Below are positions 38,970 through 59,324 of a stretch of 64,000 nt of DNA, piece after piece. The stretch is taken from assembly GCF_030013595.1 (NCBI RefSeq), contig NZ_CP122768.1; one strand, given 5' to 3'. How positions within the stretch are numbered: position 1 is the stretch's first letter; every line of letters begins with the position of its first letter. Source of the stretch: Escherichia coli. GTDB lineage: Bacteria > Pseudomonadota > Gammaproteobacteria > Enterobacterales > Enterobacteriaceae. The position numbers were made by a program, and so were the translations under genes. The notes below the pieces were generated by a model. The model saw nothing but the letters and a program-made list of their open reading frames with translations. It was not told the origin of the DNA and did not search any database.

Positions 38970-39043
38970 GCGGGCGTAGTTCAATGGTAGAACGAGAGCT
39001 TCCCAAGCTCTATACGAGGGTTCGATTCCCTTCGCCCGCTCCA
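38970..39043 (+). tRNA. glyU: tRNA-Gly, anticodon CCC
   Basis: 74 nt GCGGGCGTAGTTCAATGGTAGAACGAGAGCTTCCCAAGCTCTATACGAGGGTTCGATTCCCTTCGCCCGCTCCA; cloverleaf, T-loop GGTTCGATTCC, encoded CCA. Confidence 0.95.
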
Positions 39044-39044
39044 A
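39026..39044. repeat. attL: 19-bp direct repeat (tRNA-Gly 3' end) at the left island junction
   Basis: TTCCCTTCGCCCGCTCCAA is identical to 53083-53101. Confidence 0.85.
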
Positions 39045-39207
39045 ACAAACATTTCTCAACGTCTACTAAAGTCCATCAAACCCACGAATATCAAGCCTTC
39101 CAGCCATTTTCATAGTTTATTAACGTCTACTCACAACCACCAGAATCTACACACAGAAGTGTATAGTAATGCGTATAGGACAAAATTTATTTTTTGGAGC
39201 TATACAC

Positions 39208-40422
39208 ATGCTGCTTTCAGACCTTGCCATCAGGCGCGCGAAGCCGAAAGAAAAGGCTTATACACTCAATGACGGTAACGGGCTTTCGTTGCTCATTGAG
39301 CCGAACGGTTCGAAAGGGTGGCGACTGCGCTACAGGTTTGCAGGAAAGCCCAAAATGTTGTCGTTGGGTGTGTACCCTGATGTGTCTCTGTCTGATGCCA
39401 GGGCGGCAAGGGATGAGGCTAAAAGGCTTCTTGCTGGTGGTATAAATCCAAGTGAGGCCAGAAAAGCCCAAAAGCGAGAACAGGCGAGCAAATTTGGCAA
39501 TACTTTTGAGGGTATTGCTCGCGAATGGTACGAAAAGCGGATCGACAGGTGGTCATCGTCATACGCCGAGGAAATGATCGAGACGTTTGAAAAAGATGTT
39601 TTTCCGTACATTGGCGGTAGGCCGATCGCAGAAATTAAGCCGATGGAATTGCTGGCGGTTCTTTCCCGTCTTAATGACCGTGGTGCGACTGAAAAATTGC
39701 GTAAGGTTCGCCAGCGATGCGGCGAGGTGTTCCGGTACGCAATCATCACCGGACGCGCCGAATATAATCCAGCCCCTGACCTGGTGAGCGCATTTGCTCC
39801 ACATAAAAAAGAGCATTACGCCTATTTGAAGGCCGACGAACTGCCGGAATTTTTCCGCGTTTTTAATACGTACACCGGAAGCCAGATCGTCAAACTGGCA
39901 ATGCGGCTATTAATTCTGACAGGTGTCAGACCCGGGGAATTACGGCAGGCAGAATGGCAGGAGATCGATTTTGATAATCGTTTGTGGGAAGTGCCTAAAG
40001 AACGAATGAAGATGCGCCGTCCGCATTGTGTGCCATTACCAGAACAGGCGATAAAAATACTGGAGCAGTTAAAAAACATGACAGGCCAGTATCAGTTTAT
40101 TTTCCCCGGTCGTATTCACCACAGTAAGCCAATGAGTGAAATGGCGATGAATGTGCTCATTCGTCGTATCGGCTATGCCGGGCGCGTTACTGGTCATGGA
40201 TTCCGGCACACCATGAGCACCATTTTGCATGAGCAGGGCTATAACACCGCGTGGATAGAGACGCAGCTCGCACACGTCGATAAAAACTCAATTCGTGGCA
40301 CATACAACCATGCGCAATATCTGGATGGTCGCCGGGAGATGCTCCAGTGGTATGCCGACTATATGGATTCGCTCGAGCATGGCGGTAACGTGGTGCATGG
40401 CAAGTTCGGAAAATGTGGATGA
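39208..40422 (+). CDS. int: Tyrosine recombinase, P4-type integrase
   Basis: N-terminus MLLSDLAIRRAKPKEKAYTLNDGNGLSL...WRLRYRFAGKPK and catalytic-region residues (HGFRHT, LAH...RGTY); start after GGAGC. Confidence 0.9.
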   Translation: MLLSDLAIRRAKPKEKAYTLNDGNGLSLLIEPNGSKGWRLRYRFAGKPKMLSLGVYPDVSLSDARAARDEAKRLLAGGINPSEARKAQKREQASKFGNTFEGIAREWYEKRIDRWSSSYAEEMIETFEKDVFPYIGGRPIAEIKPMELLAVLSRLNDRGATEKLRKVRQRCGEVFRYAIITGRAEYNPAPDLVSAFAPHKKEHYAYLKADELPEFFRVFNTYTGSQIVKLAMRLLILTGVRPGELRQAEWQEIDFDNRLWEVPKERMKMRRPHCVPLPEQAIKILEQLKNMTGQYQFIFPGRIHHSKPMSEMAMNVLIRRIGYAGRVTGHGFRHTMSTILHEQGYNTAWIETQLAHVDKNSIRGTYNHAQYLDGRREMLQWYADYMDSLEHGGNVVHGKFGKCG

Positions 40423-40550
40423 CTGGTTGCGTATACAGTAGTAGACTTTGAGCGACGAAAGAAAAGGCTGTGTCTAGGGTCGCTCCCGAAAATCCGTACA
40501 CCTCGACGGACTGGTACAGCCACTACAGTAGAGGACGCTGAGGTGTGCGT

Positions 40551-41348
40551 ATGATTGATATTCATGCCGAATTAAACGAATACAAAAAAGATTTTATTTC
40601 TTTACGTGAATTTCTTGAGGTCGTGCTTAAGGTCGCTGGTGATGATTATGATGTTTCAGATGTCATAACTTGGATACTCAGGAGAATAAGCGGAGAACAT
40701 ATCCGCCTGTACACAGTAAATGAATTTAAGCTGTTGGAATCTTTTTGTAACCCGTATCGGGATGAATTTGATTATGATGTTCTTTATAGAAATCTGAATG
40801 CGGTTCGGAAACGTGGTTGTTTACCTGGTGAGAGGGATGAAAATGGTTTTCTGGTGTCCGGTTATTGGGAAGATCCCGAATTTGAGAACATTGGATTTAT
40901 AAGGGGTGAAATTTTCGCAATTTTTCCCGATGTCCTTGACGCGTTAACGAAGCTGGAAGGCGCTAACTCTTCTGAAAATGACGAGGCACAAGGACGCGAT
41001 ATTGAAAAGAAAGAGTTGCGTACAGAGGATGATTTATTATCCCAAATCGCAATGCTGGAAAAAGAAAACGCAGAGTTAAGGGCAAGGATAGAGCAGTTAG
41101 AGCAAGAGCGCCCGATACACTTATATAAATACTGGGATAAAGACCCATTAGCTAAGGCTATTGAGATTAGAAACAGAGAGTGGGCCAATTACGATCCAGA
41201 AAATGATTTTGCCACCAGGGGAAATCAAGAAGCGATAACCAGGGAGCTTAAGCAGTGGGGGGCAAGTAATGCACTTGCAACGCTCATAGAGAGGACTGCC
41301 TGCCCTATTAACCGAGACAACAGCCAAAAGAACGCAAAGCCGGATTAA
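40551..41348 (+). CDS. Hypothetical protein, AT-rich orphan cargo gene next to the integrase
   Basis: 265-aa ORF behind a GAGG Shine-Dalgarno; central coiled-coil stretch (LSQIAMLEKENAELRARIEQLEQER); visibly lower GC than int; no motif I recognise. Confidence 0.6.
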   Translation: MIDIHAELNEYKKDFISLREFLEVVLKVAGDDYDVSDVITWILRRISGEHIRLYTVNEFKLLESFCNPYRDEFDYDVLYRNLNAVRKRGCLPGERDENGFLVSGYWEDPEFENIGFIRGEIFAIFPDVLDALTKLEGANSSENDEAQGRDIEKKELRTEDDLLSQIAMLEKENAELRARIEQLEQERPIHLYKYWDKDPLAKAIEIRNREWANYDPENDFATRGNQEAITRELKQWGASNALATLIERTACPINRDNSQKNAKPD

Positions 41349-41363
41349 CGCACCATACCGCAT

Positions 41364-41507
41364 ACCCTGAGGGTGATTTACTGTTACCCTGAGGGTATTT
41401 TTTTATCTTCCCCGTCAATTTTACCATCACCCTTAGGGTAGATTTCCTCCCGATTACCATCACCCTTAGGGTTAATTTCCTTCCGGTAACCATTAGGCCT
41501 GAGGGTA
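41364..41507. repeat. Five copies of the palindromic motif CCCT(G/T)AGGGT, including a ~33-bp tandem direct repeat; putative operator upstream of alpA
   Basis: Copies at about 41364, 41386, 41428, 41461 and 41494; unit TTACCATCACCCTTAGGGT(A/T)(G/A)ATTTCCT occurs twice. Confidence 0.6.
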
Positions 41508-41575
41508 TGAAAATATTCGTTATTTCTGTGCCAGGATTACCTCGTCAAATTGAGTAGACGTTATGAGGTAAATAT

Positions 41576-41773
41576 ATGTCAAATACGCTTATTCGTTTAA
41601 CAGAAGTTCAGCGTAGAACTGGATATAGCAAGGCATGGATTTATCGCCTTATGGGGCAAGGTAAATTTCCTGCATCAGTTAAAATTGGCTCGCGAGCTAT
41701 TGCTTTCGTTGAGAGTGAAATTGACGAGTGGATTAATCAGCGTATTGCGGAATCACGCGGAACAGCTACCTGA
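41576..41773 (+). CDS. alpA: AlpA-family phage transcriptional regulator / excisionase-like
   Basis: 65 aa, MSNTLIRLTEVQRRTGYSKAWIYRLMGQGKFPASVKIGSRAIAFVESEIDEWI, the canonical AlpA HTH. Confidence 0.8.
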   Translation: MSNTLIRLTEVQRRTGYSKAWIYRLMGQGKFPASVKIGSRAIAFVESEIDEWINQRIAESRGTAT

Positions 41774-41850
41774 TTAAATGGCTACGGGGCTATTGCCCCC
41801 AGCTATCCACCAGCAAATAAAAGTAACTTAATTCGATAGCAGGAGTTTTT

Positions 41851-42651
41851 ATGAAATTTCCAAAAACGCCCGTACAGGGGCGGGGCTTCGTTCGGCCTGA
41901 AAACCAGAATCTGCAAAATTTCGGCGAAATTATCCCGGTTATTTCCGGCGTTATTGGCGGGAGTGAAACCACTATTGTTAGCGCCAGAGCGTTACATAAG
42001 GCGTTAGGTGTAGGGCGCGTTTTCCGTTCGTGGATCAAGGGGCGCATTGAAGAATACGGGTTCACGGAAGGCGTGGATTATGAGGTTGTTGAATATTTGA
42101 GCCGACCCGATCCGGTGAGCGCAAAATCTCGCCAGCAAACCGCTCTTGAGTACATCATCACAGTGAACATGGCGAAAGAACTGGCGATGGTCGAGCGCAC
42201 CGAACAGGGCCGCGCCGTTCGTCAGTACTTCATCAAATGCGAGGAGGAGCTACACAAGGTTGCGCCTGTTCGTTCCGCAGCGTTACGCCGGGAACTGAAA
42301 GCCCGTATCACCGTTGCCAGTTACTTTAAGCCGATGTGCGCCGCGCTGGAGGCGTACCGGGCTGAACTGGGTAAAAACACGTTCCAGCACCACTACACCA
42401 CGGAAGCCAATATGCTGGCGCGTATCGTGCTGGGTGGCATGACTGCAAAACAGTGGGCGCAGGCGAACGGCATCACAGGCGAACCACGCGACCACATGAG
42501 CACGTTGCAGCTTGAGCACCTTTCTTACCTTGAGCAGAGCAATATCACGCTGATTGAGTTAGGCCAGGACTACCACCAGCGGAAAGCTGAATTAATTCGT
42601 CTTTCGCAGCGTTGGTTAGCCCGTCGCATGGAGGAAAACAGCCATGTGTAA
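41851..42651 (+). CDS. Phage antirepressor-like protein (AntA N-terminal / KilAC-like C-terminal)
   Basis: ARALHKALGVGRVFRSWIKGRIEEYGFTEGVDY and MAKELAMVERTEQGRAVRQYFIKCEE resemble Ant-type antirepressor domains; AGGAG Shine-Dalgarno. Confidence 0.65.
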   Translation: MKFPKTPVQGRGFVRPENQNLQNFGEIIPVISGVIGGSETTIVSARALHKALGVGRVFRSWIKGRIEEYGFTEGVDYEVVEYLSRPDPVSAKSRQQTALEYIITVNMAKELAMVERTEQGRAVRQYFIKCEEELHKVAPVRSAALRRELKARITVASYFKPMCAALEAYRAELGKNTFQHHYTTEANMLARIVLGGMTAKQWAQANGITGEPRDHMSTLQLEHLSYLEQSNITLIELGQDYHQRKAELIRLSQRWLARRMEENSHV

Positions 42652-43278
42652 CGCTCTGACCGTTACAAAAAGAGAAAGCGCCCCGTTGCCGGAGCGCCTT
42701 TGTGAACGAATAGCCTACTGCGCCATATTGCTTACTGTCTACGAGGCAGATTATAGCGTTGTGGTCGCACAGAGTGAAGGCGCTGATCACCGTTACTACA
42801 GCACGCCAGAAATGCAGAATATTTTGCTGCAAAATGCCGTTGGTCACGCCGTCCGGAAAGCAAAAAATTTTGCTGGTGGCGCGACTGATGCGATTTTGTC
42901 AGGTCGCCAGGTGCTGATCAATCTGATGTCTGATTTCGTTCTGGATAAAACAAAGGCGACCGCAGAGAGCCGCCAGTGGAAAAGCTACATACTTGAACGC
43001 ATCACCAACAATGCCACATTTGCGGCTGGTGGGCAATGTGATCAGTCAGATTTGGTTCGTTCCAAGGTTTGCAACGAGAGCTTTTTCCTGTGCTCTTTAA
43101 GGAATTTCTCAAGAGCAAACGAACAAGGTGCGAATCTTTCTGATTCATGTTCATGCGCTATATTTTTGCGTCGTTTCTTACGAGTTGGTGATGGTGTTTT
43201 GGTTGATTCTGTGTCGCTCATGGTGCTGTCCTGTAAAGCAATGCGCCTGCGTTCCTCAAACTATGGCGCTGATAGTGG

Positions 43279-43584
43279 CTATTCCTGCTCTTTGACCTTG
43301 CGTCGCTGGAGTTCTTCACGCGCGACGGTGACGAGTTGCCCGATCTCCTCGGCTGCTTTGACTCCGATTTTTTCCACCTGCGCCAGTGCATCGAGCGAAG
43401 AAACCAGGGGATTTTCTCCTCTTCCTTCTGCCTGGCGCCGGGCGATCTCCCCGCGCATGGCGGTTACTATGAATCCGGCGTTGCTTTCGCCGTCCAGTTT
43501 TACGGATTCCATGCCTTCAATAACATCATGCGGGATCCGAGCTGTCAGTGATTGTGATTTTGCGTTTTTTGAACCTGTAGCCAT
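43279..43584 (-). CDS. Putative small DNA-binding repressor (ribbon-helix-helix-like), divergent from the replication operon
   Basis: 101 aa from the ATG at 43584 behind GAGAGGA (track ORF extends to a TTG at 43599); faces a palindrome-containing intergenic region. Confidence 0.5.
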   Translation of the reverse strand: MATGSKNAKSQSLTARIPHDVIEGMESVKLDGESNAGFIVTAMRGEIARRQAEGRGENPLVSSLDALAQVEKIGVKAAEEIGQLVTVAREELQRRKVKEQE

Positions 43585-43780
43585 CTGTAATCCTCTCAAT
43601 GAAAGTGTAAGACAATATACACATAAAAAGTCTTACATAAAAGCATTGACATGTAAGCCACCCACAAATAAAGTTACTTACACCTTGTTAATGCAAGGTG
43701 CAGAAACGACGAAACCCGGCAGTGCGCGAACACTAACCGGGCTTCTAACCACCAACGATAGAGAGCTTATCGAGGTAGCT

Positions 43781-43984
43781 ATGTTAAATCATACCACACA
43801 CCCGCAAGGGCGGGACTCGCACAACCTGAATAAATACATCTGGCGTTTTATCGCCCTGAGTACGGCACAACCGCGCGTAATTCACATCGAGGCCACCAGC
43901 GAACAGGAAGCGCGTCAGCAATCTCCTGATGGCTGCGTGATGGTATTCGCTGCCCGTATTCGCCAGGAGGTGCACCATGCATAA
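43781..43984 (+). CDS. Hypothetical small protein (67 aa), first gene of the rightward operon
   Basis: ATG behind GAGGTAG; stop overlaps the start of the next gene; it is the C-terminal segment of track ORF 42644..43984. Confidence 0.4.
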   Translation: MLNHTTHPQGRDSHNLNKYIWRFIALSTAQPRVIHIEATSEQEARQQSPDGCVMVFAARIRQEVHHA

Positions 43985-44342
43985 CCTGTCAATTTCTGAC
44001 CTTAACAGCATTCAGTTTGACGAGAAATTTACCGGGCAGCTACTGGTCCATGTGGAGAACGGGCGCATAGTGCGTAATTACAACCTGCCGGATGGTGCAA
44101 TTGCCGGAAGCGTTGAAGCATTGCTGGAACTGGCAGAACGTGCGCGACTGATTAAGCCGTTAACGAGCCATCACGATGATGATCTGCATTTTACCGGACG
44201 CATGGTGAGTCACTACGAAAACGGTGTCGAGGTATCCCGCGAACGTCTGCGTGATGATTGCTGTTTCGGCACACTGCCGGAATTTATCGAATTGCTGACC
44301 GATTGCGGTTATCAGGTAATTCAGAGCAAGACGCAGGAGTAA
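43977..44342 (+). CDS. Hypothetical protein (121 aa)
   Basis: ORF coupled to the upstream and downstream genes; no recognisable motif. Confidence 0.5.
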   Translation: MHNLSISDLNSIQFDEKFTGQLLVHVENGRIVRNYNLPDGAIAGSVEALLELAERARLIKPLTSHHDDDLHFTGRMVSHYENGVEVSRERLRDDCCFGTLPEFIELLTDCGYQVIQSKTQE

Positions 44343-44348
44343 AAAACC

Positions 44349-44639
44349 ATGAAAAAGAAAAATTCTGGCTTTACTGCCAGCGGCCCCGCTCGGCCTGAAA
44401 TCAGACACGGCGATATTTACCGCGACACCAGACGCGGGGGACGAGTGGTTATTCGTCACGTTACGCCAGGCAATATCACCTACCGCCGCGAGGCTTACGA
44501 ATATGACTGCGTAATGCCGCGCCGTCAGTTTGAGCGTGATTTTATTCTGGTGGAAAACAAACAACAGGCGGTGGCGAGACGTGCAGCCACGAATATTAAA
44601 AAAATCCGGGCAATGTTGGTTGCGGGAGGTAAGAAGTGA
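44349..44639 (+). CDS. Hypothetical protein (96 aa)
   Basis: AGGAG Shine-Dalgarno; stop overlaps the GTG start of the primase gene. Confidence 0.5.
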   Translation: MKKKNSGFTASGPARPEIRHGDIYRDTRRGGRVVIRHVTPGNITYRREAYEYDCVMPRRQFERDFILVENKQQAVARRAATNIKKIRAMLVAGGKK

Positions 44640-46384
44640 AAAACGCACCGAATTTGAAATATCAGCCGAAGGATAAATTCACTGAGGTTATCATTTTTGC
44701 CGGGACGGATGCTTACGCCCATGCCCAACACTGGATTGAAAGCGAAGGACGAAAACATGGCGATAACGTGCCACCCGTTTATCTGGGGCCAAAGCAACTG
44801 GCAGACCTGGCGAATATCCGCATTGTCGACGATGAACGCCGCTTTGCGCGTGTTTATATCGCGGGGGAGATAGAGCCAATCCAGATCAACGCTATCGCTG
44901 AAAAACTGGCGCTGGCTGGCGTACAGGAGGCGAAATTATACAAAGGCATCACCGACCGGGAGCCGGAGAACTGGCGCGATTACCTGCAACGGTTACGCGA
45001 ACAGGCTGAGCGCGGAGAAATTCTGTCAGGAAGGACCGAGAAAAAACACAAAATATCTCTTTCCAGAATGGCGGACAGCCAAAGGGCAAAACTTTTAGCT
45101 GAACGATTTCAGGATGTAGCAATGAATCAGGAGAGTGAGGTTGTCCACGTCTGGCGCGATGATTTTTGGGTTCCGGTAAGCACACTGGATCTTAGTCGTG
45201 AAATGGTGGCTATTTACGAAGAAAACGGAACAGCGTTTAGCCGGAGAGCAATAAGCAATGCAGTGGATGCTTTAAAAGTTATGGCCAGGCCAATGGGGGA
45301 GCCGTCAGGTGATTTATTGCCGTTCGCTAATGGCGTGTTTGACCTGAAAACTGGCGAATTTTCCCCGCACTCGCTGGATAACTGGATCACCACGCATAAC
45401 GGCATTGAGTACACGCCACCAGCACCAGGGGAGAACATCCGCGACAACGCGCCAAACTTTCATAAATGGCTTGATCACGCTGCAGGAAAAGACCCGCGAA
45501 AGATGATGCGTATATGCGCTGCGCTGTACATGATTATGGCTAACCGGTACGACTGGCAAATGTTTATTGAGGCCACAGGAGACGGCGGGAGCGGCAAGAG
45601 CACATTTACGCACATAGCCACCCTTCTGGCAGGGAAACAGAACACGGTAAGCGCCGAAATGACATCGCTTGATGATGCTGGCGGGCGTGCACAGGTTGTC
45701 GGAAGTCGTCTTATTGTCCTGACAGACCAGCCGAAATATACAGGCGAAGGATCGGGAATCAAGAAAATAACTGGCGGCGACCCCGTGGAAATTAACCCGA
45801 AATATGAGAAGCGTTTCACAGCAATTATCAGGGCTGTCGTGCTGGCAACAAACAACGTGCCGATGATATTCACCGAACGGGCCGGAGGCGTTGCACGTCG
45901 ACGTGTAATTTTTCAGTTCGATAATATTGTAAGGGAGGCCGAAAAGGATAAAGAATTACCGCAAAAGATAGCGGCAGAAATACCTGTCATTATTCGTCGA
46001 CTGCTTACTAACTTTTCAGATCCAGAAAAAGCACGAGAATTATTGCTTGATCAGCGTGACGGTGCCGAAGCTCTGAAAATAAAACAGGAAACTGATCCTG
46101 TCATTGGGTTATGTGCGGCGCTTGCATTTCTTGACGAACCGCATGGAATGATGATGGGAGGCGGTAAGAGAACAGTTGACCTTAACCCACGTACAAGTCT
46201 GTACAGGCTTTATCTTGCCTTTATGGAGTACATAGGCAAAGAAGAAAAATTAAGTGTTAATGATTTTGGTAAGGCCATGAAGGCGGCTGCAAGAGAATAT
46301 GGAGCTGAATATCTGACCAGAGGTTTTAAAGGACGAACACAAACTAACGTTATAAGAACGGAGAGAACCGAGGAATTTTTATAA
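44636..46384 (+). CDS. Phage/plasmid primase-helicase (P4-alpha / PICI Pri-Rep type, SF3 P-loop)
   Basis: Walker A GDGGSGKST and Walker B-like LIVLTDQP; GTG start behind GGAGG; iterons immediately downstream. Confidence 0.85.
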   Translation: MKNAPNLKYQPKDKFTEVIIFAGTDAYAHAQHWIESEGRKHGDNVPPVYLGPKQLADLANIRIVDDERRFARVYIAGEIEPIQINAIAEKLALAGVQEAKLYKGITDREPENWRDYLQRLREQAERGEILSGRTEKKHKISLSRMADSQRAKLLAERFQDVAMNQESEVVHVWRDDFWVPVSTLDLSREMVAIYEENGTAFSRRAISNAVDALKVMARPMGEPSGDLLPFANGVFDLKTGEFSPHSLDNWITTHNGIEYTPPAPGENIRDNAPNFHKWLDHAAGKDPRKMMRICAALYMIMANRYDWQMFIEATGDGGSGKSTFTHIATLLAGKQNTVSAEMTSLDDAGGRAQVVGSRLIVLTDQPKYTGEGSGIKKITGGDPVEINPKYEKRFTAIIRAVVLATNNVPMIFTERAGGVARRRVIFQFDNIVREAEKDKELPQKIAAEIPVIIRRLLTNFSDPEKARELLLDQRDGAEALKIKQETDPVIGLCAALAFLDEPHGMMMGGGKRTVDLNPRTSLYRLYLAFMEYIGKEEKLSVNDFGKAMKAAAREYGAEYLTRGFKGRTQTNVIRTERTEEFL

Positions 46385-46401
46385 GAGTAATGCCTGCAAC
46401 A

Positions 46402-46691
46402 GGTAGACGGGTAGATATTGGGTAGATGCTAGTTTTATGGATGCCTACCCGCTGAATCCCTTGCGCCACAAGGGATTCAGCGAAATAGGTAGATAGGGTA
46501 GACAATATCTCGCTTAAAAACTTTTTTACGCAGCGAAAGGAAAATACAGGTTAGAGAATGGAGAGTTAAAAGAAAGTCACTTTTACTATCTACCCTATCT
46601 ACCTAATAGATAAAAGTTGTTTTTTATCATTGTGTTAAGTGGGTAGATAACCGTTTCTTTGTTGTCTACCTGTTATCTACCTTGTCTACCC
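46402..46691. repeat. Putative replication origin: at least 11 copies of the iteron GGGTAGA(T/C) in both orientations, an 11-bp-arm hairpin and an AT-rich stretch
   Basis: Iterons at 46402, 46409, 46420, 46488, 46496, 46588, 46597, 46641, 46664, 46675 and 46684; inverted repeat CTGAATCCCTT/AAGGGATTCAG at 46452-46480. Confidence 0.7.
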
Positions 46692-46760
46692 ATAAGATGA
46701 AAGTACCGGATACGCCGTGAAGGTGCAGGCAGTGAAGCCCTGGTTATCGCATGTACCAAG

Positions 46761-47108
46761 ATGAAGGATGCGGAGGAACTGAAAGAAATGGCTTGCGATT
46801 TGCGCGAGGTTGAGCTTTTCAAGGATGAAGGCGGGGAGTTAATCACGTCGTTGGTGCTGGAGGATAAGCCCCGCCCACCCGTTGAACTGGAGCGCATCGA
46901 GTACGCTGCTAACAAGACAGAGAATCACGACGCGCTATGGGGCTGTATCCGTTCACGCACACAGCGCGGCGATAAATGCACTATCCCGTTGTTGCGCGAT
47001 GACATGAAAAAGCTGGGGTATGAGATGAAACACTTCCGGCGCTGGCTGTACAAGCTGGAAAGCGACGGCGTAATCGCTATTGACGGTGATTATGTGCGCC
47101 CACTGTAA
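46761..47108 (+). CDS. Hypothetical protein (115 aa)
   Basis: ORF only; sits between the origin and the GTGAGGA array. Confidence 0.4.
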   Translation: MKDAEELKEMACDLREVELFKDEGGELITSLVLEDKPRPPVELERIEYAANKTENHDALWGCIRSRTQRGDKCTIPLLRDDMKKLGYEMKHFRRWLYKLESDGVIAIDGDYVRPL

Positions 47109-47495
47109 AAAGTGAGGAGCAAAAGTGAGGATGGCGGGTAATTTAACAAAAAATCAACGCCACTCCTCACTTTCTCACCTGTATATAGGTCAAAAAGTGA
47201 GGAGTTAAAAACACATTGCAAAACAACAGATTACAACAATAAAGAAAACGACTGAGGAGCAGAACAAGAATAATAAAAAGTGAGGAACAAAAGTGAGGAA
47301 TGGTGAGTTAATAGAAATGAGGTAATAAAAATAACAGGTAGGTTAAAAAACACACCATGCAAGATATTAACTAAAACTTAACTATTTACCTCACTTTTGC
47401 GTATATATAAGGATTAAAAAGTGAGTACTTAAAAATACATTTAAAATCATATTGTTATTAACTTCATAAATTTTCACTGTGCAGCAGGTGAGGAA
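47107..47495. repeat. AT-rich non-coding array of at least 8 copies of AAAGTGAGGA (both orientations)
   Basis: Copies at about 47107, 47121, 47161 (inverted), 47193, 47276, 47289, 47388 (inverted), 47417 and 47487; no ORF of 60 aa or more. Confidence 0.6.
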
Positions 47496-47574
47496 TTAAA
47501 AAATCAGGAATGTTAAAAATGAAAACAGAATGTTGTGTCAGTGCCGTTGGGCAACGTAGCAACCAGTAAAAACG

Positions 47575-48117
47575 ATGGGGCAAAGCATGACTAAGCTGAC
47601 CATTAACAGAAAACCGAAAGGCATTTACGGCACGCCGCAGAAAACGACGCAGGCGGCGCAGGAGCAGGATAAAACCACATCGGCGCATAAAGTGATGCCC
47701 GGTAACCAGAAAGCGCAGCAGAAGCCCACAGGGGCGACACCGTGGCGGCATATGACCAAACGCCAGCGCAAAAACCGCAGGCGCGTTAACCGCCTCACTG
47801 AGTTGTGGCCTGAATTATTCAGCCGGGAAGCACCGAAGCCGCTTAAGGTGGGGATATTCGACGACCTGATGCAGGATCTCGCCGTCAGGGGGCTGGCATT
47901 CGGTCCAGGGGCATTGCGTGCGACGCTGGCATCTTATGCGCAGTGTCCGCGCTATTACCGCGCCTTAATGGCTGGTGGGGTACGCTACGACCTGAAAGGC
48001 CAGCCGTGCGGCGAGGTGACACCACAGGAACAACAGGACGCCGAAACGCGGCTGGTGGCGCTGAATGAGAAGCGCAAACGTCAGCGCCGGGCAGCAAAGG
48101 AGAAAACAGGCGCATGA
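47575..48117 (+). CDS. ProQ/FinO-domain RNA-binding protein
   Basis: LTELWPELFSREAPKPLKVGIFDDLMQDL...RATLASYAQCPRYYRALMAGGVRYDLKGQPCGEV parallels the recalled ProQ N-terminal domain (RFPHCF...RPLKIGIFQDL...RVDLDGNPCGE). Confidence 0.7.
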   Translation: MGQSMTKLTINRKPKGIYGTPQKTTQAAQEQDKTTSAHKVMPGNQKAQQKPTGATPWRHMTKRQRKNRRRVNRLTELWPELFSREAPKPLKVGIFDDLMQDLAVRGLAFGPGALRATLASYAQCPRYYRALMAGGVRYDLKGQPCGEVTPQEQQDAETRLVALNEKRKRQRRAAKEKTGA

Positions 48118-48401
48118 TTCACGACAGCAAAGCGGAAGCACTGGAAGCGCGTGGTCTGTACCGGAGAGCGGCGGCGCGGTGGGCTGAGGTCATCATGCTG
48201 GCGAATGATGACAAGGCACGGGAACAGGCGGCAAAACGTCGCGCGGAATGTATCCGCAAGGCAGCACGCCCACCAGCAAGGCAGGATAATTTCGGGGAAA
48301 TGCGCGAAACCATCAGCCGGGCACATGCCGGGATGGGATTACATCAGCCCAATGGTAAGGCATTCAGGAAATACCCTGGATCGAAAAATTGCAGTCAGTG
48401 A
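48114..48401 (+). CDS. PerC-family transcriptional regulator (copy 1)
   Basis: MIHDSKAEALEARGLYRRAAARWAEVIM...RRAECIRKA matches the PerC/Pch family signature as I recall it; ATGA overlap with the ProQ/FinO gene. Confidence 0.7.
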   Translation: MIHDSKAEALEARGLYRRAAARWAEVIMLANDDKAREQAAKRRAECIRKAARPPARQDNFGEMRETISRAHAGMGLHQPNGKAFRKYPGSKNCSQ

Positions 48402-48405
48402 CAGA

Positions 48406-48430
48406 AGCCGGGATTTTTCCCGGCTTTTTT
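48406..48430 (+). terminator. Rho-independent terminator after the PerC-like gene
   Basis: AGCCGGG-attttt-CCCGGCT followed by a T6 run. Confidence 0.75.
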
Positions 48431-48442
48431 GTGCCAGTAAAA

Positions 48443-48477
48443 AGCCCGCAGCCAGAAGTGTTGCGGGCTTTGTTTTT
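48443..48477 (+). terminator. Second tandem rho-independent terminator
   Basis: AGCCCGCA...TGCGGGCT followed by TTGTTTTT. Confidence 0.65.
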
Positions 48478-48596
48478 CAGGTGATTGAAGTCAATGGGAA
48501 GAACGCGATCATCATGCGTTATCGCTTCATAAATTGCAACGATGTAGATCGTTATTTCAGTTTGTGCAATCATAATCATTGTTTTGTTCAGGAGAT

Positions 48597-48776
48597 ATGA
48601 CTATGAGAAAAGCCAGCGTGAAACCCGTTTTACTCGCTCGTGATCAGATTGAAGCATTACAGCGCATCCAGGACGAGGAACGCCGCAATTCTCCGCTGGG
48701 GATTGCTCCGAGCATTCATGAGGTCGCCCGGCGTTTAATGCAGCGGGCGCTTTATCCCGTAGAACGTCCGGCCTGA
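48597..48776 (+). CDS. Hypothetical small protein (59 aa)
   Basis: ATG behind CAGGAG; MTMRKASVKPVLLARDQIEALQRIQDEE... Confidence 0.4.
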   Translation: MTMRKASVKPVLLARDQIEALQRIQDEERRNSPLGIAPSIHEVARRLMQRALYPVERPA

Positions 48777-48815
48777 TGGTCGTGATTTTTTGGTGAAAAA
48801 AGAGAGGTGGTAAAA

Positions 48816-49400
48816 ATGCCAGCAAGCAAAGAAGATTTGCGATTAAAACTGATGGAGGTGGTTAACGCTCTGTCAGAGTCGCAGGGCAGCACTCCGCAGG
48901 AGATTATCGAAATTCTGAATGCGATCCCCGCACAGGATTTCACAAAAGCGGACGAGGATGACGCGAATAAAAACATCGTCGCGTCAGTCGAAGATGAATC
49001 CTCACTGGCAGAAGCCCAGGCTAAAGCGGATTCCGCATACAGCAATATGGGCCGTCGCGCTCCAGCCCCGTTTGCTGGTGAAAAGTCGATGGATTACCGC
49101 AAGCGTGCATTAATTGGTGCACAGAAGCTGGCTAAAAAATTCAGTGATGTGGATATTCGTTCCGTTTCAGATTCTGCAACGCTGGCGGTGCTGGAAGATC
49201 AGATTTACCAGGCTGCAAAAGACAGTGTTCAGTGGGCTGTGGAAAATACGCCGGGCTATTTGCGTAAAACCGTAAGAATGGATGAAGCCGGACGGCGGAT
49301 TACTGAATATCAGGGGGATCCGAATAACTGGCTTAGTGCTTTCAAAATCCCTCCCCGTCGCCTGGTTAAAATTAACGTTGCAAGCCTCGCGGGGGCATGA
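48816..49400 (+). CDS. Hypothetical protein (194 aa)
   Basis: ATG behind GAGGTGG; acidic, with predicted helical regions; no recognisable motif. Confidence 0.5.
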   Translation: MPASKEDLRLKLMEVVNALSESQGSTPQEIIEILNAIPAQDFTKADEDDANKNIVASVEDESSLAEAQAKADSAYSNMGRRAPAPFAGEKSMDYRKRALIGAQKLAKKFSDVDIRSVSDSATLAVLEDQIYQAAKDSVQWAVENTPGYLRKTVRMDEAGRRITEYQGDPNNWLSAFKIPPRRLVKINVASLAGA

Positions 49401-49464
49401 AAAACGTGCTGATTTCAGCCCTGCCGGATTTGGTGGGGCTTATTGCTTATAACCGGGGGACATT

Positions 49465-50118
49465 ATGCTTTTAACAGAAATTGAGGCGGCAAAGCAGATT
49501 CGGGACGGTCAGCTACCGTCGCCTTATCAGTTTTCCAACATGTGGCTGATTAACCTGCGTATCACAGGAACCGGAATGGCCTATCGCGCCGAAGAAAAAG
49601 AATTTGTCTGGCGTTCACCGCAAACTTATCTCAATCCGCAGTTCCTGGAACGTTGCGCCGGAGTACCCGTCATTATCGACCATCCCGAAAGCAAAACCCT
49701 TGAAGACGTGGGCGAACGGTCGCGCATTATTGGCACCGTTATGTTGCCGTATATTCGCGGTGACGAGGTGTGGGGCGTATGCCGGATTTACGGGCAGGAA
49801 ATCATCGATTACATCCAGAAAGCACGGGGGGAGGTATCCACCAGCCCGTCGGTTGTGTTTTGTGGTGCGTCCGGTGGGGCAGAAGTTCCTGATGTAATGG
49901 GCGAGGACAATTTTTTCATTGAGGGTACGCCATTTCTTATCGATCACGTTGCGCTCGTACCGTTGGGCGTATGGGATAAGGGCGGGAAACCATCAGGTGT
50001 GGAAGTAACAACGCCGACAGAAGAAGAACAGCTCGCCGGAATGGTCCGTGAAGTTATTGATGCGGCCTGCAAGCCAGCCCTGGAAAAACTGGAAGAAATA
50101 TCCGGGCGCTGGCTATGA
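49465..50118 (+). CDS. Hypothetical protein (217 aa)
   Basis: ORF behind a GGGGGA Shine-Dalgarno; no recognisable motif. Confidence 0.5.
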   Translation: MLLTEIEAAKQIRDGQLPSPYQFSNMWLINLRITGTGMAYRAEEKEFVWRSPQTYLNPQFLERCAGVPVIIDHPESKTLEDVGERSRIIGTVMLPYIRGDEVWGVCRIYGQEIIDYIQKARGEVSTSPSVVFCGASGGAEVPDVMGEDNFFIEGTPFLIDHVALVPLGVWDKGGKPSGVEVTTPTEEEQLAGMVREVIDAACKPALEKLEEISGRWL

Positions 50119-50288
50119 ATCGTGGGATTGTCCCTGCAGCAGGAAACAATGATCAGAACGTTAAGTTGGAAATTGTTCGGAACGCTGGTGCCGATTACTT
50201 CGCGCAACTAATTGGTGCTCAACGGTTCCTGGGATGATTTAAATACACGCGCTTTCCGGCGCATTAATACAGTCTGAGGGGAAGTGTC

Positions 50289-50813
50289 ATGTTTATGAGC
50301 AAGGCAGAATATGCCAAACACAAAGGCGTAAGCCGCCAGACAGTTTACGACTGGATCGAGAAAGGCGAAGTGGTCATGTCCGGTAAAAAAATCGATGTGG
50401 AAGCGACAGAGCAGCGGAACAGCCCACCAGCACAGGGAAAAGATACCGTTTCTGAAATGTGGCCAGAGAGAACGCTGGAAATGACGTGGGGCGAGTTCTG
50501 GAAAGCAGTTAAGGCCAGAGACGGTAAAATCCCTGCACCAGTAACGGACGATGACATACAGCAGCGTGTGCAGGATGCAGCCGGGGAACTATGCTGTGAA
50601 GTGCAATTTCTTGATGATGGTGCTATCTGCCTTGAGGATTATGCTGGGCAATATTACTTTGAGCAGTATGATTTTCGGGAAAATGCCAGGCTGGCAATTC
50701 GTATGCTGCGTTGTGAGCTCTGCTATGTTGCAGGTGATTGTCCCGATGAGCTGGATAACTGGAGTGAAGCCGGACTAAACGCCCTGGCTGAGTGGGAAAA
50801 ATCATCCCATTAA
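50289..50813 (+). CDS. HTH-domain protein (small-terminase / Rpp-like N-terminus)
   Basis: N-terminus SKAEYAKHKGVSRQTVYDWIEKGEV is a typical HTH as seen in phage small terminase subunits; followed by a repeat array. Confidence 0.5.
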   Translation: MFMSKAEYAKHKGVSRQTVYDWIEKGEVVMSGKKIDVEATEQRNSPPAQGKDTVSEMWPERTLEMTWGEFWKAVKARDGKIPAPVTDDDIQQRVQDAAGELCCEVQFLDDGAICLEDYAGQYYFEQYDFRENARLAIRMLRCELCYVAGDCPDELDNWSEAGLNALAEWEKSSH

Positions 50814-50826
50814 TGACCGTAAAATT

Positions 50827-51110
50827 CGCGAAAAGTGTCAAGTCAGGCCGTCTGCCGGGTTGACACTTTACACTCTGAACGCGAAAAAGTGTCAACCTCG
50901 CTGTAAGCCCCGCCATTACTGGCCTTTCGCCAGATTTACCACGTCAAAAAGCCGAAAAAATCGCGAAAAGTGTCAAGTTGCCATGCTTAGAAATGCTAAG
51001 GTTTGATAAGGTTTTTCGCGAAAAAGTGTCAAGTGTGTCAACCTGCGATGTTAAGATTTGTTAAGGTCTTAAGCCGGAAAGTGTCAACCAGCCCCTAAGA
51101 TTTCCTAAGG
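50827..51110. repeat. Array of at least 6 copies of CGCGAAAAGTGTCAA plus three TAAG(A/G)TTT doublets
   Basis: Copies at about 50827, 50861 (inverted), 50880, 50960, 51016 and 51078; non-coding. Confidence 0.6.
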
Positions 51111-51118
51111 TGTAAATC

Positions 51119-51409
51119 ATGACCATCACCGAAGCCGATATGCTGGAGATGATCCGCAGCATTGCCGGAATCAGACCACCAGCAGGCAAACAGGAGGCCA
51201 CGCAGCCGGACAGCGTTATCGCTGAGAACTATGCGCGTGTGGTGGCTGAGGTGATGCGCCGTGACGGTATTGAGCTTAACGGAGTGGATATGCGCGACAT
51301 ACGCACCAGGGTACTCGAGTTATTGGCCTACCGTCGCCGCGTGCAGATGTACCGGGAGAGCGAGAAAAAGACTTACCAGTGGAAGAAGCCGGAGCGGTTA
51401 CGGCGGTAA
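51119..51409 (+). CDS. Hypothetical protein (96 aa)
   Basis: ORF behind an AAGGTG Shine-Dalgarno. Confidence 0.45.
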   Translation: MTITEADMLEMIRSIAGIRPPAGKQEATQPDSVIAENYARVVAEVMRRDGIELNGVDMRDIRTRVLELLAYRRRVQMYRESEKKTYQWKKPERLRR

Positions 51410-51459
51410 CCAGTTGATAAAAAGGCTCCTCAATTTTGAGGAGGGTAGCTGGTGGCTGG

Positions 51460-51481
51460 CAGAATGTAAATTTACATTCTG
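51460..51481. terminator. Perfect 22-bp palindrome between convergent genes (bidirectional terminator or protein site)
   Basis: CAGAATGTAAATTTACATTCTG, preceded by a second hairpin CTCCTCA-attt-TGAGGAG at 51426-51443. Confidence 0.5.
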
Positions 51482-51511
51482 GTGATTTAATCATCTGATT
51501 TACCCGATGGC

Positions 51512-51802
51512 TTACCTTACCAGGCCATAGCGGATTACCGTGCAATGCGCACCATCGCCACCAATACGCACATCAAAACGTGGCTCACGGACTTTCACAC
51601 GCTCCAGCAACTTATCACGAACCATAGCGTTTAGCGTCCTTCGTGTTGCCTCTATGTGATATCGCTGATATTCGGAACCATAGAGCAGCACTGTAACACC
51701 ACGAACATCAAAAGGTGGATCTCCAGCCTCCACCCGCACCCAATCGCGATACTCAGGTTTGTAGAGTTCAAGGATCTGTTTTTTGTGCCTGGTCATTCTC
51801 AT
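51512..51802 (-). CDS. Hypothetical protein (96 aa)
   Basis: Minus-strand ORF with a protein-like composition; palindromic operator upstream. Confidence 0.45.
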   Translation of the reverse strand: MRMTRHKKQILELYKPEYRDWVRVEAGDPPFDVRGVTVLLYGSEYQRYHIEATRRTLNAMVRDKLLERVKVREPRFDVRIGGDGAHCTVIRYGLVR

Positions 51803-51916
51803 GCGTGCAACTCCTTATTGTGGGACAGTACTGTCATACAATAAGCTATACGGAAAATTATCAAAAGAACAGAAACCAACCATTCAGATTTAACAGGTAT
51901 CAATGGGATTATGCTT

Positions 51917-52219
51917 ATGGTGCATGATGACAAAGCGGAAGAACTGGAAGCGAAAGGCTTATGGCGACGGGCGGCTAATCGCTGGGGTGAGTTACTGAAA
52001 CAGGCGGCAAGTGATGAAGCGCGTCAGTATGTAACGGAACGACGAACGGCATGCATCCGGAAGGCAACCATAACCCGGGAACCGGAAAGAGACCTGATTT
52101 GTGCCATAAGAACCGCCGCCACAAAAACACTAACGGATATGGGGATCGACCTGAAAAAAGAAGATCCACTGCGGGGCATTCAGCACGGACATACAAAGCA
52201 GGATAAACGCAGGAAGTAA
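51917..52219 (+). CDS. PerC-family transcriptional regulator (copy 2)
   Basis: MVHDDKAEELEAKGLWRRAANRWGELL...RRTACIRKA parallels copy 1 at 48114 (clear paralogue); alternative ATG at 51911. Confidence 0.7.
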   Translation: MVHDDKAEELEAKGLWRRAANRWGELLKQAASDEARQYVTERRTACIRKATITREPERDLICAIRTAATKTLTDMGIDLKKEDPLRGIQHGHTKQDKRRK

Positions 52220-53082
52220 ATTTTTTCGTGTAACCAGGCAACCGACTATCTGAAAGATAGTCACACCCTACCGGGATCACGCTAGTAACGCACAACAGAG
52301 TGACCCATAGCCACCCTGTTTAACCGTTCCGGCTGGCTGGGCAGATTTTGCGCGGGTCTTATAGTCCCTCACAACAGAGTAAATAAAATTGACTTGGTTA
52401 CAGAGTAACCAAACCGGAGATTCCCGGTTTGCTCAAAAAATGACAATGAGTTACGCCCCTAACCTAAGTAATCCTTACATTCACTGCATCATCACCATGA
52501 TGGTGACGCAGCCCACCAGCAACCATAACGATTTCCGTTACAGTTGATGTGCTTTTTTGCTGGTAAGGCGTAACCCGTTGATTGTTCCAGAATCCACCAT
52601 CGGTGGAAGTTGAAAAACTCACCCGCCAGATTCTGAATGGTGAAAATCACCGGGGATCTGAATAGGCATTTCCTCTATGGAGGTCGCACCGTTTTCGGGA
52701 GAAGGTGCGATCATGTTCGTCATACCTGTTCCGTTGAAACGGAATACCCCATTCCGGCGTAGCTGGTGGACGCACAGCCACATACGAAAAATTGCATTCA
52801 GGAGGGGGGATCGAAATCCCTACCCCCCATTGCTTATGGGACCGCCCGCCCCGTCAAATTTTTACACCCGCGAAATTAAAAAAATGCGTCGCGCTGGTGG
52901 GCCTGATGCCGATATGGGGATTCCCATAACGGGTTATCCATGATCATCCACCAGCTTGATAACGGATAACAGGGGATGCGAAATCCTCAAGCGAGTGATA
53001 AACGTGTATAGAAATGTGTATAGAATCTATTTTAGAACTCGAGAATGTGCCTTTATTACTGGTCTTGTTGCTTGTTGTATTG

Positions 53083-53101
53083 TTCCCTTCGCCCGCTCCA
53101 A
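53083..53101. repeat. attR: 19-bp direct repeat of the tRNA-Gly 3' end at the right island junction
   Basis: TTCCCTTCGCCCGCTCCAA is identical to 39026-39044. Confidence 0.85.
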
Positions 53102-53333
53102 TTTATCTTCACCTCATCAACCTGTCATTTTTGTTGTATCTGATTTTCTATATTATCTTAATTCAATCGCTTCAGACTTTTCGCAATCGCCGAAATACTT
53201 CCCCATTTTGTTGTAAATAAAAAGCGTTTACGCAATGCAATCCTTTTGTAACAACCCAGGTAAAATACCTTATTTTCAAGTTGTTAAATAAGTGGTTATC
53301 TACGCTTTTAACAAACGATTGATGGAATATTTT

Positions 53334-54944
53334 ATGAAAGGGAAATCTGCATTAACGCTTCTGCTTGCTGGTATATTTTCGTGCTGCACATGCCAGGCGA
53401 CATGGGCAGAAGTGACGAGTGACTCCGTATTTAACATTCTTAATTCCAGGGGGGAAGCAATAGATAAAAGTTATTTATCGTTAAATCCAGATAAGTATCC
53501 TAATTATCGTCTTCTGATTCACTCAGCCAAATTACAAAATGAAATAAAGAGCCACTATACCAAAGACGAAATTCAAGGATTGTTTACATTAACAGAAAAC
53601 ACACGAAAGTTAGCGTTGACGGAGAAACCCTGGGGAACGTTTATTCTTGCTTCTACTTTCGAAGATGACAAAACAGCGACAGAAACCCACTATGATGCTG
53701 TCTGGCTGAGGGATAGTTTATGGGGCTATATGGCATTAGTATCAGATCAGGAAAATAGGGTAGCTGCAAAAAAGATTCTGCTCACCCTGTGGGATTATAT
53801 GTCTACGCCCGACCAGATTAAGCGGATGCAGGATGTCATTAGCAACCCAAAACGACTGGATGGAATTCCCGGGCAAATGAATGCTGTGCATATCCGATTT
53901 GACAGCAACTCCCCCGTGATGGCAGATGTGCAGGAAGAAGGCAAGCCGCAGCTGTGGAACCATAAACAAAATGATGCTTTAGGTCTTTATCTTGATCTCC
54001 TTATACAAGCCATCGACACTGGTACTATTAACGCTGAAGACTGGGAAAAAGGTGACCGATTAAAATCGATTGCGCTGTTGGTTGCTTATCTGGATAAATC
54101 CAATTTCTATATTATGGAAGATTCTGGAGCGTGGGAAGAAGATGCCCGATTAAACACATCTTCCGTTGCACTGGTGACCTCGGGACTGGAACGTTTGTCG
54201 AACTTACTCTCGAAGAAAGACTCTGTTTTTATTTCTGATTTACTACGCGAAGCTAAAGCCAATGAACTGGATGAAACTTTTTCAACAACGAGGTTGAACC
54301 ATCTCATAGATAAAGGGTATGAAAGAATAACGCTACAGCTTGATTTAGGGGGAGAATCCCCTGGTTATCTGGAAAAAGATAAACATTACAGAGAAGCTGA
54401 TGCGGCCTTACTTAATGTTATTTATCCTGCAAATCTTTCAAAGATAAACACCAGAAGAAAAGAGCAAGTTCTAAAAATAGTTAAAAAACTAGCAGGTCCG
54501 TATGGTATAAAAAGATACGAGAAGGATAATTATCAGTCGGCAAATTTTTGGTTCAATGATATTAAAACTGATACTGATGAAAATTCACATGCGAAAAGAG
54601 AAATGAGCTTCATTCCATCAACAGAAGCAGAATGGTTTTTTGACTCATGGTATGCAAAATCAGCAGCAATTGTTTATAAAGAATCAAGAAAAGAAGAGTA
54701 TTTGAATGACTCAGTGCAATTTATGAATAGATCATTGGCCCAAATAACAGGCGAGAATATGATTGGTGCAAATGGCAGGAGCGTACCAGAAATGGCACTT
54801 CCCGAAAGCTATAACTATATCCACAAGTCGGGAACTTTGCATGAAGCGCCAAGCCCTATCATTCCGCTAAATTGGTCGAAAGCTTCAATGACTCTCATGT
54901 TGAAAGAGATGTCCAACCTTATCAATGATGAGGGAATTAAATAG
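53334..54944 (+). CDS. Secreted hypothetical protein flanking ETT2 (possibly glycoside-hydrolase-like)
   Basis: Signal peptide MKGKSALTLLLAGIFSCCTCQATWA; AT-rich; DAVWLRDSLWG motif is weakly reminiscent of (alpha/alpha)6 glycosidases; sits where ygeP/ygeQ lie in K-12 as I recall. Confidence 0.55.
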   Translation: MKGKSALTLLLAGIFSCCTCQATWAEVTSDSVFNILNSRGEAIDKSYLSLNPDKYPNYRLLIHSAKLQNEIKSHYTKDEIQGLFTLTENTRKLALTEKPWGTFILASTFEDDKTATETHYDAVWLRDSLWGYMALVSDQENRVAAKKILLTLWDYMSTPDQIKRMQDVISNPKRLDGIPGQMNAVHIRFDSNSPVMADVQEEGKPQLWNHKQNDALGLYLDLLIQAIDTGTINAEDWEKGDRLKSIALLVAYLDKSNFYIMEDSGAWEEDARLNTSSVALVTSGLERLSNLLSKKDSVFISDLLREAKANELDETFSTTRLNHLIDKGYERITLQLDLGGESPGYLEKDKHYREADAALLNVIYPANLSKINTRRKEQVLKIVKKLAGPYGIKRYEKDNYQSANFWFNDIKTDTDENSHAKREMSFIPSTEAEWFFDSWYAKSAAIVYKESRKEEYLNDSVQFMNRSLAQITGENMIGANGRSVPEMALPESYNYIHKSGTLHEAPSPIIPLNWSKASMTLMLKEMSNLINDEGIK

Positions 54945-59320: not shown

Positions 59321-59324
59321 TGAA

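Follow-up and report, generated by a model that had tools for sequence, protein, structure and literature searches.

What does the gene that stands between the integrase gene and alpA do in a phage satellite of Escherichia coli? The question is raised by 64,000 nucleotides of an E. coli chromosome (NCBI RefSeq assembly GCF_030013595.1, contig NZ_CP122768.1), a stretch referred to here as the window. It contains a 14.06-kb island, bounded by 19-bp attachment (att) repeats at a tRNA-Gly gene. By its gene order, its att repeats and its lack of a structural or lysis module, this element is a Gram-negative phage-inducible chromosomal island (PICI). The interval, or slot, between its integrase gene (int) and alpA holds an open reading frame (ORF) for a protein of 265 amino acids, which RefSeq annotates as a hypothetical protein (Table 1). 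Everything in Gram-negative satellites follows from the expression of alpA, and its activation by helper phages has been stated to be an open question (PMC6092414; PMC10803314). An initial annotation, made from the sequence alone, had put the ORF forward as candidate variable cargo, possibly with an anti-phage function. The comparisons reported here favour another function, with somewhat better than even confidence: the ORF would encode an undescribed DNA-binding regulator that determines the specificity of control over the satellite master switch alpA, and would form a regulator-plus-operator cassette with the repeated sites next to it.

The ORF had been proposed as a gene of its own between int and alpA, and this was confirmed. 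It begins with ATG and coincides with a RefSeq coding sequence, and of 5,426 complete E. coli genomes 144 contain it at a coverage of 80% or more. Since Salmonella, Citrobacter and Yersinia also have homologues, it is a real gene. The proposed order of an N-terminal domain, a central coiled coil and a C-terminal domain (CTD) agrees with the AlphaFold2 models. The N-terminal domain is acidic, with an isoelectric point (pI) of 4.5, as is the full protein (pI 4.7), and the CTD is the sole part that is not (pI 8.1). Read by eye, the last two helices of the CTD (...ELKQWG-ASN-ALATLIERTA...) show a helix-turn-helix-like pattern.

The 227-nt spacer from the stop codon of the ORF to alpA (41349-41575) contains four perfect ACCCTnAGGGT palindromes within 110 bp, named O1 to O4, followed by an imperfect copy, O5. 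The palindrome does not occur elsewhere in the 64-kb window, where 0.9 copies would be expected. At the equivalent position in Yersinia and in many other loci, it is present in three to six copies within spacers that are otherwise not conserved. Measured from centre to centre in 32 distinct spacers, the distances between palindromes concentrate at 22, 33, 43-44 and 54-55 bp, that is, at whole helical turns, and the phasing gives a Rayleigh R of 0.89 at a period of 10.5-11 bp. Whole-turn phasing is the usual signature of cooperative protein binding along one face of the DNA.

Other origins of the palindromes were rejected. They are not sites for AlpA itself, near-identical AlpA proteins being found with wholly different repeats, nor arm sites of the integrase, as they lie about 2.3 kb from the attL core and beyond the int gene. 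They are not the replication origin, the iterons of which sit 3' of the primase gene at 47106-47299. Nor are they RNA hairpins, since no stem of 5 bp can form around a loop of 1 nt. At O2, a weak hairpin with a 3-nt loop is possible and is followed by a T-run, and O2 may serve in addition as a weak terminator for the ORF.

The widely conserved part of the protein family is the last ~70 residues, the CTD, and the N-terminal parts differ among its members. The CTD carries the motif ERPIxLxxYxxxDPLxxAIxIRNxEWxxYD...AxxIExxACPIxR and is found always at the extreme C-terminus, always following a coiled coil. It is contained in about 55 clusters (50% identity) from a collection of 1.84 billion representative proteins. 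A set of 73 CTD loci was assembled from IMG/VR with a CTD profile (60 loci), from exact-protein look-ups (7) and from E. coli genome regions (6). In every one of them, an alpA homologue lies directly 3' of the CTD gene, on the same strand and 27-250 nt away. In addition, an integrase gene is found upstream in all enterobacterial-type loci having enough flank. The slot gene is therefore a fixed partner of alpA and not a free passenger. It belongs to an undescribed protein family that is confined to the int-alpA interval of PICI-type islands. [quoted passage not shown]

A second set comprised 80 loci with AlpA 77-100% identical to that of the window. The slot was occupied by a CTD-family gene in 48 of these loci, including those with a divergent subtype, CTD-2. 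In the remaining 32, which fell below the threshold of the hidden Markov model, the slot always held either another plus-strand ORF of ~230-380 amino acids or two ORFs. Domains are shuffled among these ORFs, in a network in which at least five more C-terminal types occur. PHROGs and NCBIfam likewise gave no annotation for these types. The variability foreseen by the initial annotation is thus real, and the module is indeed exchanged. In E. coli EC5 (L001:12809-16252, compared with 39208-42651 of the window), the 1,181-nt ORF-spacer-alpA segment is 100% identical behind a different integrase at tRNA-Thr (thrW), with the gene order kept through ant. The same block behind a different integrase at thrW indicates that the regulatory module has been exchanged between islands with different integration sites. 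What did not hold is the interpretation as cargo, the pattern of exchange being that of a regulatory specificity cassette.

The repeats track the C-terminal type of the slot protein, and neither AlpA nor the N-terminal domain. None of the 32 loci that lack the CTD contains ACCCTnAGGGT, despite AlpA proteins that are 77-88% identical. In loci L096 to L100, AlpA is 97% identical, the slot protein carries CTD-2 (...AIKELWSTYD...AEAVNLVLRP...), and the spacer has inverted repeats of the GGTGG/CCACC type with zero copies of ACCCTnAGGGT. The palindrome is retained where the canonical CTD is joined to unrelated N-terminal domains (L101, L126), and also in short forms of 151-155 amino acids with the canonical CTD and no N-terminal domain. 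The N-terminal type of the window is itself found fused to a different C-terminal type, or as a separate ORF, in related islands. Further C-terminal types have repeats of their own before alpA (Table 1). Over seven types, the motif-by-type matrix is diagonal, with no motif reaching two copies in the spacer of another type. No other candidate DNA-binding protein co-varies with the repeats.

The cassette could work as follows. The central coiled coil would form a dimer, as binding to a palindrome needs, and the pair of CTDs would bind one ACCCTnAGGGT site. Four or five such dimers would line one face of the DNA in cooperative fashion, starting just past the stop codon of the ORF and reaching about -43 of the alpA promoter. 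This assembly would set the expression of alpA and hence excision, replication and transfer of the island. The variable acidic N-terminal domain would be the input module, most likely binding a protein of the helper phage or an anti-repressor of the island, and occupation by such a ligand would alter DNA binding or oligomerisation. An analogy for this input role is Stl of the staphylococcal islands, which binds a helper-phage protein (PMC6695447).

Several points weigh against this proposal. Since the loci that supplied the repeat motifs were also the ones scored for them, the diagonal of the matrix arises partly by construction and its off-diagonal entries alone are independent evidence. The 3' end of the ORF adjoins the repeats, and part of the co-variation could be plain linkage. 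As alpA lies just as near to the repeats, linkage alone leaves unexplained that every change of the repeats goes with the C-terminal type and none with AlpA. The placement of O1-O5 relative to the alpA promoter is a guess. A TG-extended -10-like element without a -35 consensus was found by eye at 41529-41537, and given this guess O5 would, speculatively, lie near -43. Furthermore, the prototype island EcCICFT073 works without a slot gene. Such a regulator is therefore not universal in PICIs, and a slot gene common to all of them is ruled out. The 365-nt int-alpA gap of this island (L155:7161-7525, E. coli CFT073) holds other direct repeats, of the GAACAAC and GACACAAC types. From the different repeats and the missing slot gene, it follows that its alpA control region is built differently. 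Finally, in the Vibrio PICMI, deletion of iolg, the gene in the same slot, abolishes excision and does not make it constitutive (PMC10803314), which, if the two genes are analogous, speaks for a positive role and against a simple repressor.

The sign of the proposed control is nearly balanced. The protein could be a repressor or gatekeeper that keeps alpA off until the helper arrives, a functional analogue of Stl, or it could be a phage-dependent activator. A repressor is slightly favoured, and in its favour alpA is silent until the helper is induced (PMC6092414, PMC11773190).

A clue to the nature of the input may come from loci in which the gene is split. Many loci have an N-terminal ORF of ~100-150 amino acids, homologous to residues 1 to ~116 of the window protein, and a second ORF of ~150 amino acids that encodes linker, coiled coil and CTD. 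The ending D-x-D-(I/V)-P-F is shared by at least 14 distinct N-terminal ORFs, of which at least eight have MDFDDDIPF as their last nine residues. This is exactly the nine-residue acidic C-terminal tip by which SSB of E. coli, the binding protein for single-stranded DNA, recruits partner proteins (PMC10018359). Proteins of replication and repair dock on this tip. DDIPF is the ending of the SSB that EcCICFT073 encodes. In the fused protein of the window, a degenerate internal counterpart is found, WEDPEFENIGF (residues 106-116, nt 40866-40898), the last residue of which, F116, is nearly invariant. As part of the wider and more tentative proposal given further below, the SSB-like tip suggests that the signal could be read through phage or host replication and recombination proteins that dock on the peptide.

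Among other explanations for the slot gene, the one that survives best, though it is still unlikely, is that the protein is an accessory factor of excision or recombination that acts with Int and AlpA, like IOLG of the Vibrio PICMIs, the repeats being architectural sites. AlpA-type proteins do resemble excisionases, and the ORF and int are co-directional. The position of the repeats does not suit this role: they lie past int, at the distance from the attL core given above and far outside the usual attP arm region of P4-type elements. In three types their distance from the alpA leader, which they adjoin, hardly changes, the proximal repeat ending 69 nt before the ATG in the window, 62 nt in L104 and 64 nt in L115. 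Moreover, the ORF does not overlap int, whose end (40422) is separated from the start of the ORF (40551) by a 128-nt gap that holds an RNA motif, and EcCICFT073 excises without any slot gene (PMC6092414).

A role as defence or accessory cargo, in which the variable N-terminal domain would sense a phage component and the protein would abort or block infection, with a merely positional link to alpA, is very improbable. Satellites do carry defence genes, the slot is variable, and the family is without annotation. The related island EcCIMP1 confers superinfection immunity although it has no defence system that can be recognised (PMC11773190). As in the case of Stl, binding of a phage protein by a regulator could at the same time hamper the phage concerned, and the slot protein may have a secondary interference role of this kind. 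The searches, however, gave nothing positive for cargo. PADLOC returned zero families for the ORF at E values up to 1, and no match for ten further ORFs of the island and its right flank. No effector, enzymatic, membrane or nucleoside triphosphatase domain is found in the ORF, and the lack of a catalytic motif noted from the sequence was upheld in PADLOC, NCBIfam, Pfam, PHROGs and PDB sequences. Pfam and NCBIfam contained no known or catalytic domain for it, the Pfam output being coiled-coil noise on the long helix alone. The two marginal PHROGs matches (E ~0.002) both fall on the same helix. Neither the CTD profile nor the N-domain profile matched a Pfam family. Against PDB sequences, the former retrieved coiled-coil peptides only and the latter a non-significant match to the N-lobe of Tpt1 (E = 0.05). 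A tblastn search of the family against 50,697 phage genomes found no homologue. Homology to a housekeeping or structural phage protein was not found either, and the slot gene differs among related islands. The known defence genes and the defence hotspot of PICIs lie 3' of pri (PMC11364771), whereas the int-alpA interval holds the ORF. Cargo would not be expected to pair strictly with alpA or to have type-specific phased repeats.

Base composition does not set the ORF apart from the switch either. It had been noted that the ORF is poorer in G and C than int and the primase gene, and this is correct (41.5%, compared with 50.4% and 48.5%; 38.9% in the part for the N-terminal domain). Separate acquisition, which had been deduced from it, was not supported, as the spacer (42.7%) and alpA (42.9%) are equally low and the low-GC block consists of ORF, spacer and alpA. 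A low GC content common to alpA is no sign that the ORF was acquired separately from the core switch.

It is equally improbable that the protein targets proteins, as an anti-activator sequestering AlpA or Int or as a hub for host replication and recombination machinery, with the repeats bound by another factor: its strong overall acidity, the SSB docking peptide at the end of split N-terminal domains (PMC10018359) and the unrecognised DNA-binding fold would suit this, but the repeats change with the C-terminal type even where AlpA is 97-100% identical, no second DNA-binding protein follows them, and palindromes and a coiled-coil dimer suit direct binding.

Regulation of alpA by the slot protein would be a variation on devices known from other mobile elements. 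Regulators of mobile elements that act on cognate operators are in themselves a known kind of device. The protein family, its CTD, the unidirectional arrangement with an RNA leader and the role proposed here in Gram-negative satellites have not been described. The master repressor Stl/Rpr of the pathogenicity islands in Staphylococcus aureus, which are Gram-positive PICIs, is similar in that its gene lies beside int and controls satellite induction, the role proposed here for the slot protein. It is also modular, with a DNA-binding part and a variable part that sets which helper-phage protein is recognised, and has many allelic specificities (PMC6092414, PMC6695447). Unlike the ORF, Stl has an N-terminal XRE-type helix-turn-helix. 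No XRE/CI-type helix-turn-helix was found in the ORF with the full protein or with the profiles of its two domains in Pfam, NCBIfam or PDB sequences. Fold searches gave nothing significant, and the putative DNA-binding part is C-terminal. In addition, stl is divergent from the genes that it represses, whereas the ORF is co-directional with alpA and upstream of it, and its repressor activity is only proposed here.

A parallel in position is iolg/icg of the Vibrio PICMIs, an uncharacterized gene in the int-alpA slot that falls into 13 unrelated families, in elements in which alpA is likewise the phage-induced switch. It is genetically required for the satellite cycle (PMC10803314). In contrast to the arrangement in the window, with its 128-nt spacer and RNA motif, iolg overlaps int by 1-13 nt. 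PICMIs are Vibrio elements of ~6 kb for which no cognate repeats of iolg were reported, the comparison being by description only (PMC10803314). Lambdoid immunity regions similarly combine an exchangeable DNA-binding protein with multiple helically phased cognate sites beside a conserved downstream regulator. They differ from the cassette in that the latter has no CI/Cro pair and no HTH_3 domain, is unidirectional and contains an N-terminal domain that is shuffled independently. Independent shuffling of N- and C-terminal modules is also the behaviour of the Bro-N/KilA-N regulator network, but none of the Bro-N, KilA-N or associated Pfam domains is present in the ORF. In CP4-57 of E. coli K-12, where AlpA was first defined, the 318-residue uncharacterized protein YfjH (L156:2645-3601) is encoded between intA and alpA. 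Unlike the slot ORF, yfjH is on the opposite strand, divergent from alpA and 43 nt away from it, and homology of YfjH to the slot protein was ruled out, as there is no detectable sequence similarity.

Two RNA elements flank the ORF. The first is a match to the int-alpA RNA motif (Rfam RF02996), which ends 16 nt 5' of the start codon of the ORF. In 27 of 37 related loci, this motif stands directly before the first slot ORF, whatever the type of the slot gene, and ends ~10-20 nt before its start codon. EcCICFT073 has neither a slot gene nor the motif. From this placement and the joint absence, the motif looks like a leader of the slot gene. Rfam classes it as a small RNA gene; its position here suggests that it probably serves the slot gene as a 5' leader and is not a free-standing small RNA. 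To our knowledge, no function has been assigned to RF02996.

The second element is a hairpin in the alpA leader. A perfect stem of at least 7 bp was found in 47 of 83 distinct alpA leaders, compared with 0.8 expected, and the arms show compensatory pairs such as CTCGTAA/TTACGAG, GCTCCTGTAG/CTACAGGAGC and CCCTCCA/TGGAGGG. By folding energy alone, the hairpin is not significant (z = 0.5), and its support comes from recurrence and compensatory variants. The hairpin may prevent translation of transcripts that read through from int and the slot gene.

A wider proposal is more tentative and falls clearly short of an even chance. In a large class of Gram-negative PICIs, the int-alpA slot might hold the master regulator that senses the phage and has been missing so far. 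A new family of modular proteins would then combine an input domain and a hitherto unknown DNA-binding domain, both exchangeable, with a coiled coil. Each DNA-binding type would have phased operators of its own, and the resulting 'immunity types' would decide which helper wakes the satellite. Among 80 islands whose AlpA proteins are closely related, at least 48 have the family, with operator-like sites directly before alpA, which gives a testable lead on how helpers wake the satellite. If the slot protein is indeed a regulator of alpA, this would explain helper specificity and the differing behaviour of related islands with identical AlpA, would give the int-alpA RNA motif a function, and would offer engineered satellites a supply of orthogonal regulator-operator pairs. 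Otherwise, the family is a widespread satellite-specific protein whose role is still to be assigned.

Table 1. Features of the int-alpA region and its island (window positions unless a locus is named), with repeats and split genes of related loci
Feature	Position	Strand	Remarks
Slot ORF	40551..41348	+	265 aa, 798-nt coding sequence, ATG start
Shine-Dalgarno sequence of slot ORF	40539-40544	+	GAGGTG, 7 nt 5' of ATG
N-terminal domain, variable	40551..40964	+	residues 1-138; folded alpha/beta, beta-helix-helix-beta-beta core; AlphaFold2 predicted local distance difference test (pLDDT) ~85-90; proposed signal-input domain
Linker and long helix	40965..41108	+	acidic disordered linker (residues 139-158), predicted coiled coil (159-186), AlphaFold2; proposed dimerisation element
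C-terminal domain, conserved	41109..41318	+	residues 187-256; four helices, pLDDT 88 in a dedicated model; proposed sequence-specific DNA-binding domain
O1	41364..41374		palindrome, ACCCTGAGGGT
O2	41386..41396		palindrome, ACCCTGAGGGT, then T-run
O3	41429..41439		palindrome, ACCCTTAGGGT
O4	41462..41472		palindrome, ACCCTTAGGGT
O5	41496..41506		imperfect promoter-proximal copy, GGCCTGAGGGT, 2 mismatches; read from sequence
int-alpA RNA motif (Rfam RF02996)	40467..40534	+	45.5 bits, gathering score 35.8; model positions 1-71 of 71
alpA leader hairpin	41537..41571	+	9 bp, arms 41537-41545 and 41563-41571; 3' arm holds alpA Shine-Dalgarno sequence
alpA	41576..41773	+	master activator/excisionase-type regulator of Gram-negative PICIs (PMC6092414; PMC11773190); proposed regulation target
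P4-type tyrosine integrase	39208..40422	+	frame open from 39169
tRNA-Gly(CCC)	38970-39043
attL	39026..39044	+	19-bp direct repeat at 3' end of tRNA-Gly(CCC); partner of attR
attR	53083-53101		partner of attL
Type C, first subtype			repeat before alpA: ACCGCAATTGCGGT
Type C, second subtype			repeat before alpA: TGCATGCA
Type B			repeat before alpA: ACTTCCAAA direct repeats
Type E			repeat before alpA: GGAGTTATCA inverted repeat
Type F			repeat before alpA: ACCGGAA/TTCCGGT
Split-gene N-terminal ORF	L019:4483-4803		example, ends D-x-D-(I/V)-P-F
Split-gene N-terminal ORF	L027:1514-1882		example, ends D-x-D-(I/V)-P-F
Split-gene N-terminal ORF	L035:4347-4799		example, ends D-x-D-(I/V)-P-F
Split-gene N-terminal ORF	L147:2220-2597		example, ends D-x-D-(I/V)-P-F

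The genes of the island have a single orientation and encode the P4-type integrase, the slot protein, AlpA, an AntA/B anti-repressor, an Icd-like protein, a DUF4222 protein, a P4-family primase, a ProQ/FinO protein and PerC. Domain searches and the RefSeq annotation revealed no phage structural or lysis genes in its 14.06 kb. The chromosomal genes xdhA and actS are also in the window. Among known PICIs, the island most resembles EcCIMP1 (PMC11773190; PMC6092414), and for this related element induction and mobilisation by a helper phage have been shown (PMC11773190).

Three copies of the iteron AAAAAGTGAGGAGCAAAA, spaced ~84 bp apart in an AT-rich stretch 3' of the primase gene (47106-47299), are probably the replication origin of the island. 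P4-type immunity RNAs (C4, isrK and their a1/b1 targets) are found 3' of alpA in many related islands, including L012, L019, L033, L115 and L124. A search of the window island (39000-53200) for such RNAs gave no match, even at a permissive threshold. A small ORF at 51911-52219 (+) has a weak, below-cutoff match to the ANR family of negative regulators, and such a gene on EcCIMP1 has been reported to silence the virulence island LEE (locus of enterocyte effacement). To the right of attR (53292-60437) lie an IS2 transposase gene on the minus strand (55234-56139) and genes of an ETT2-type (E. coli type III secretion system 2) secretion apparatus, which encode an InvF-like AraC regulator, the secretin SctC and the gatekeeper InvE/SctW. 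The low GC content of this flank is due to the IS2 and ETT2 genes that sit there.

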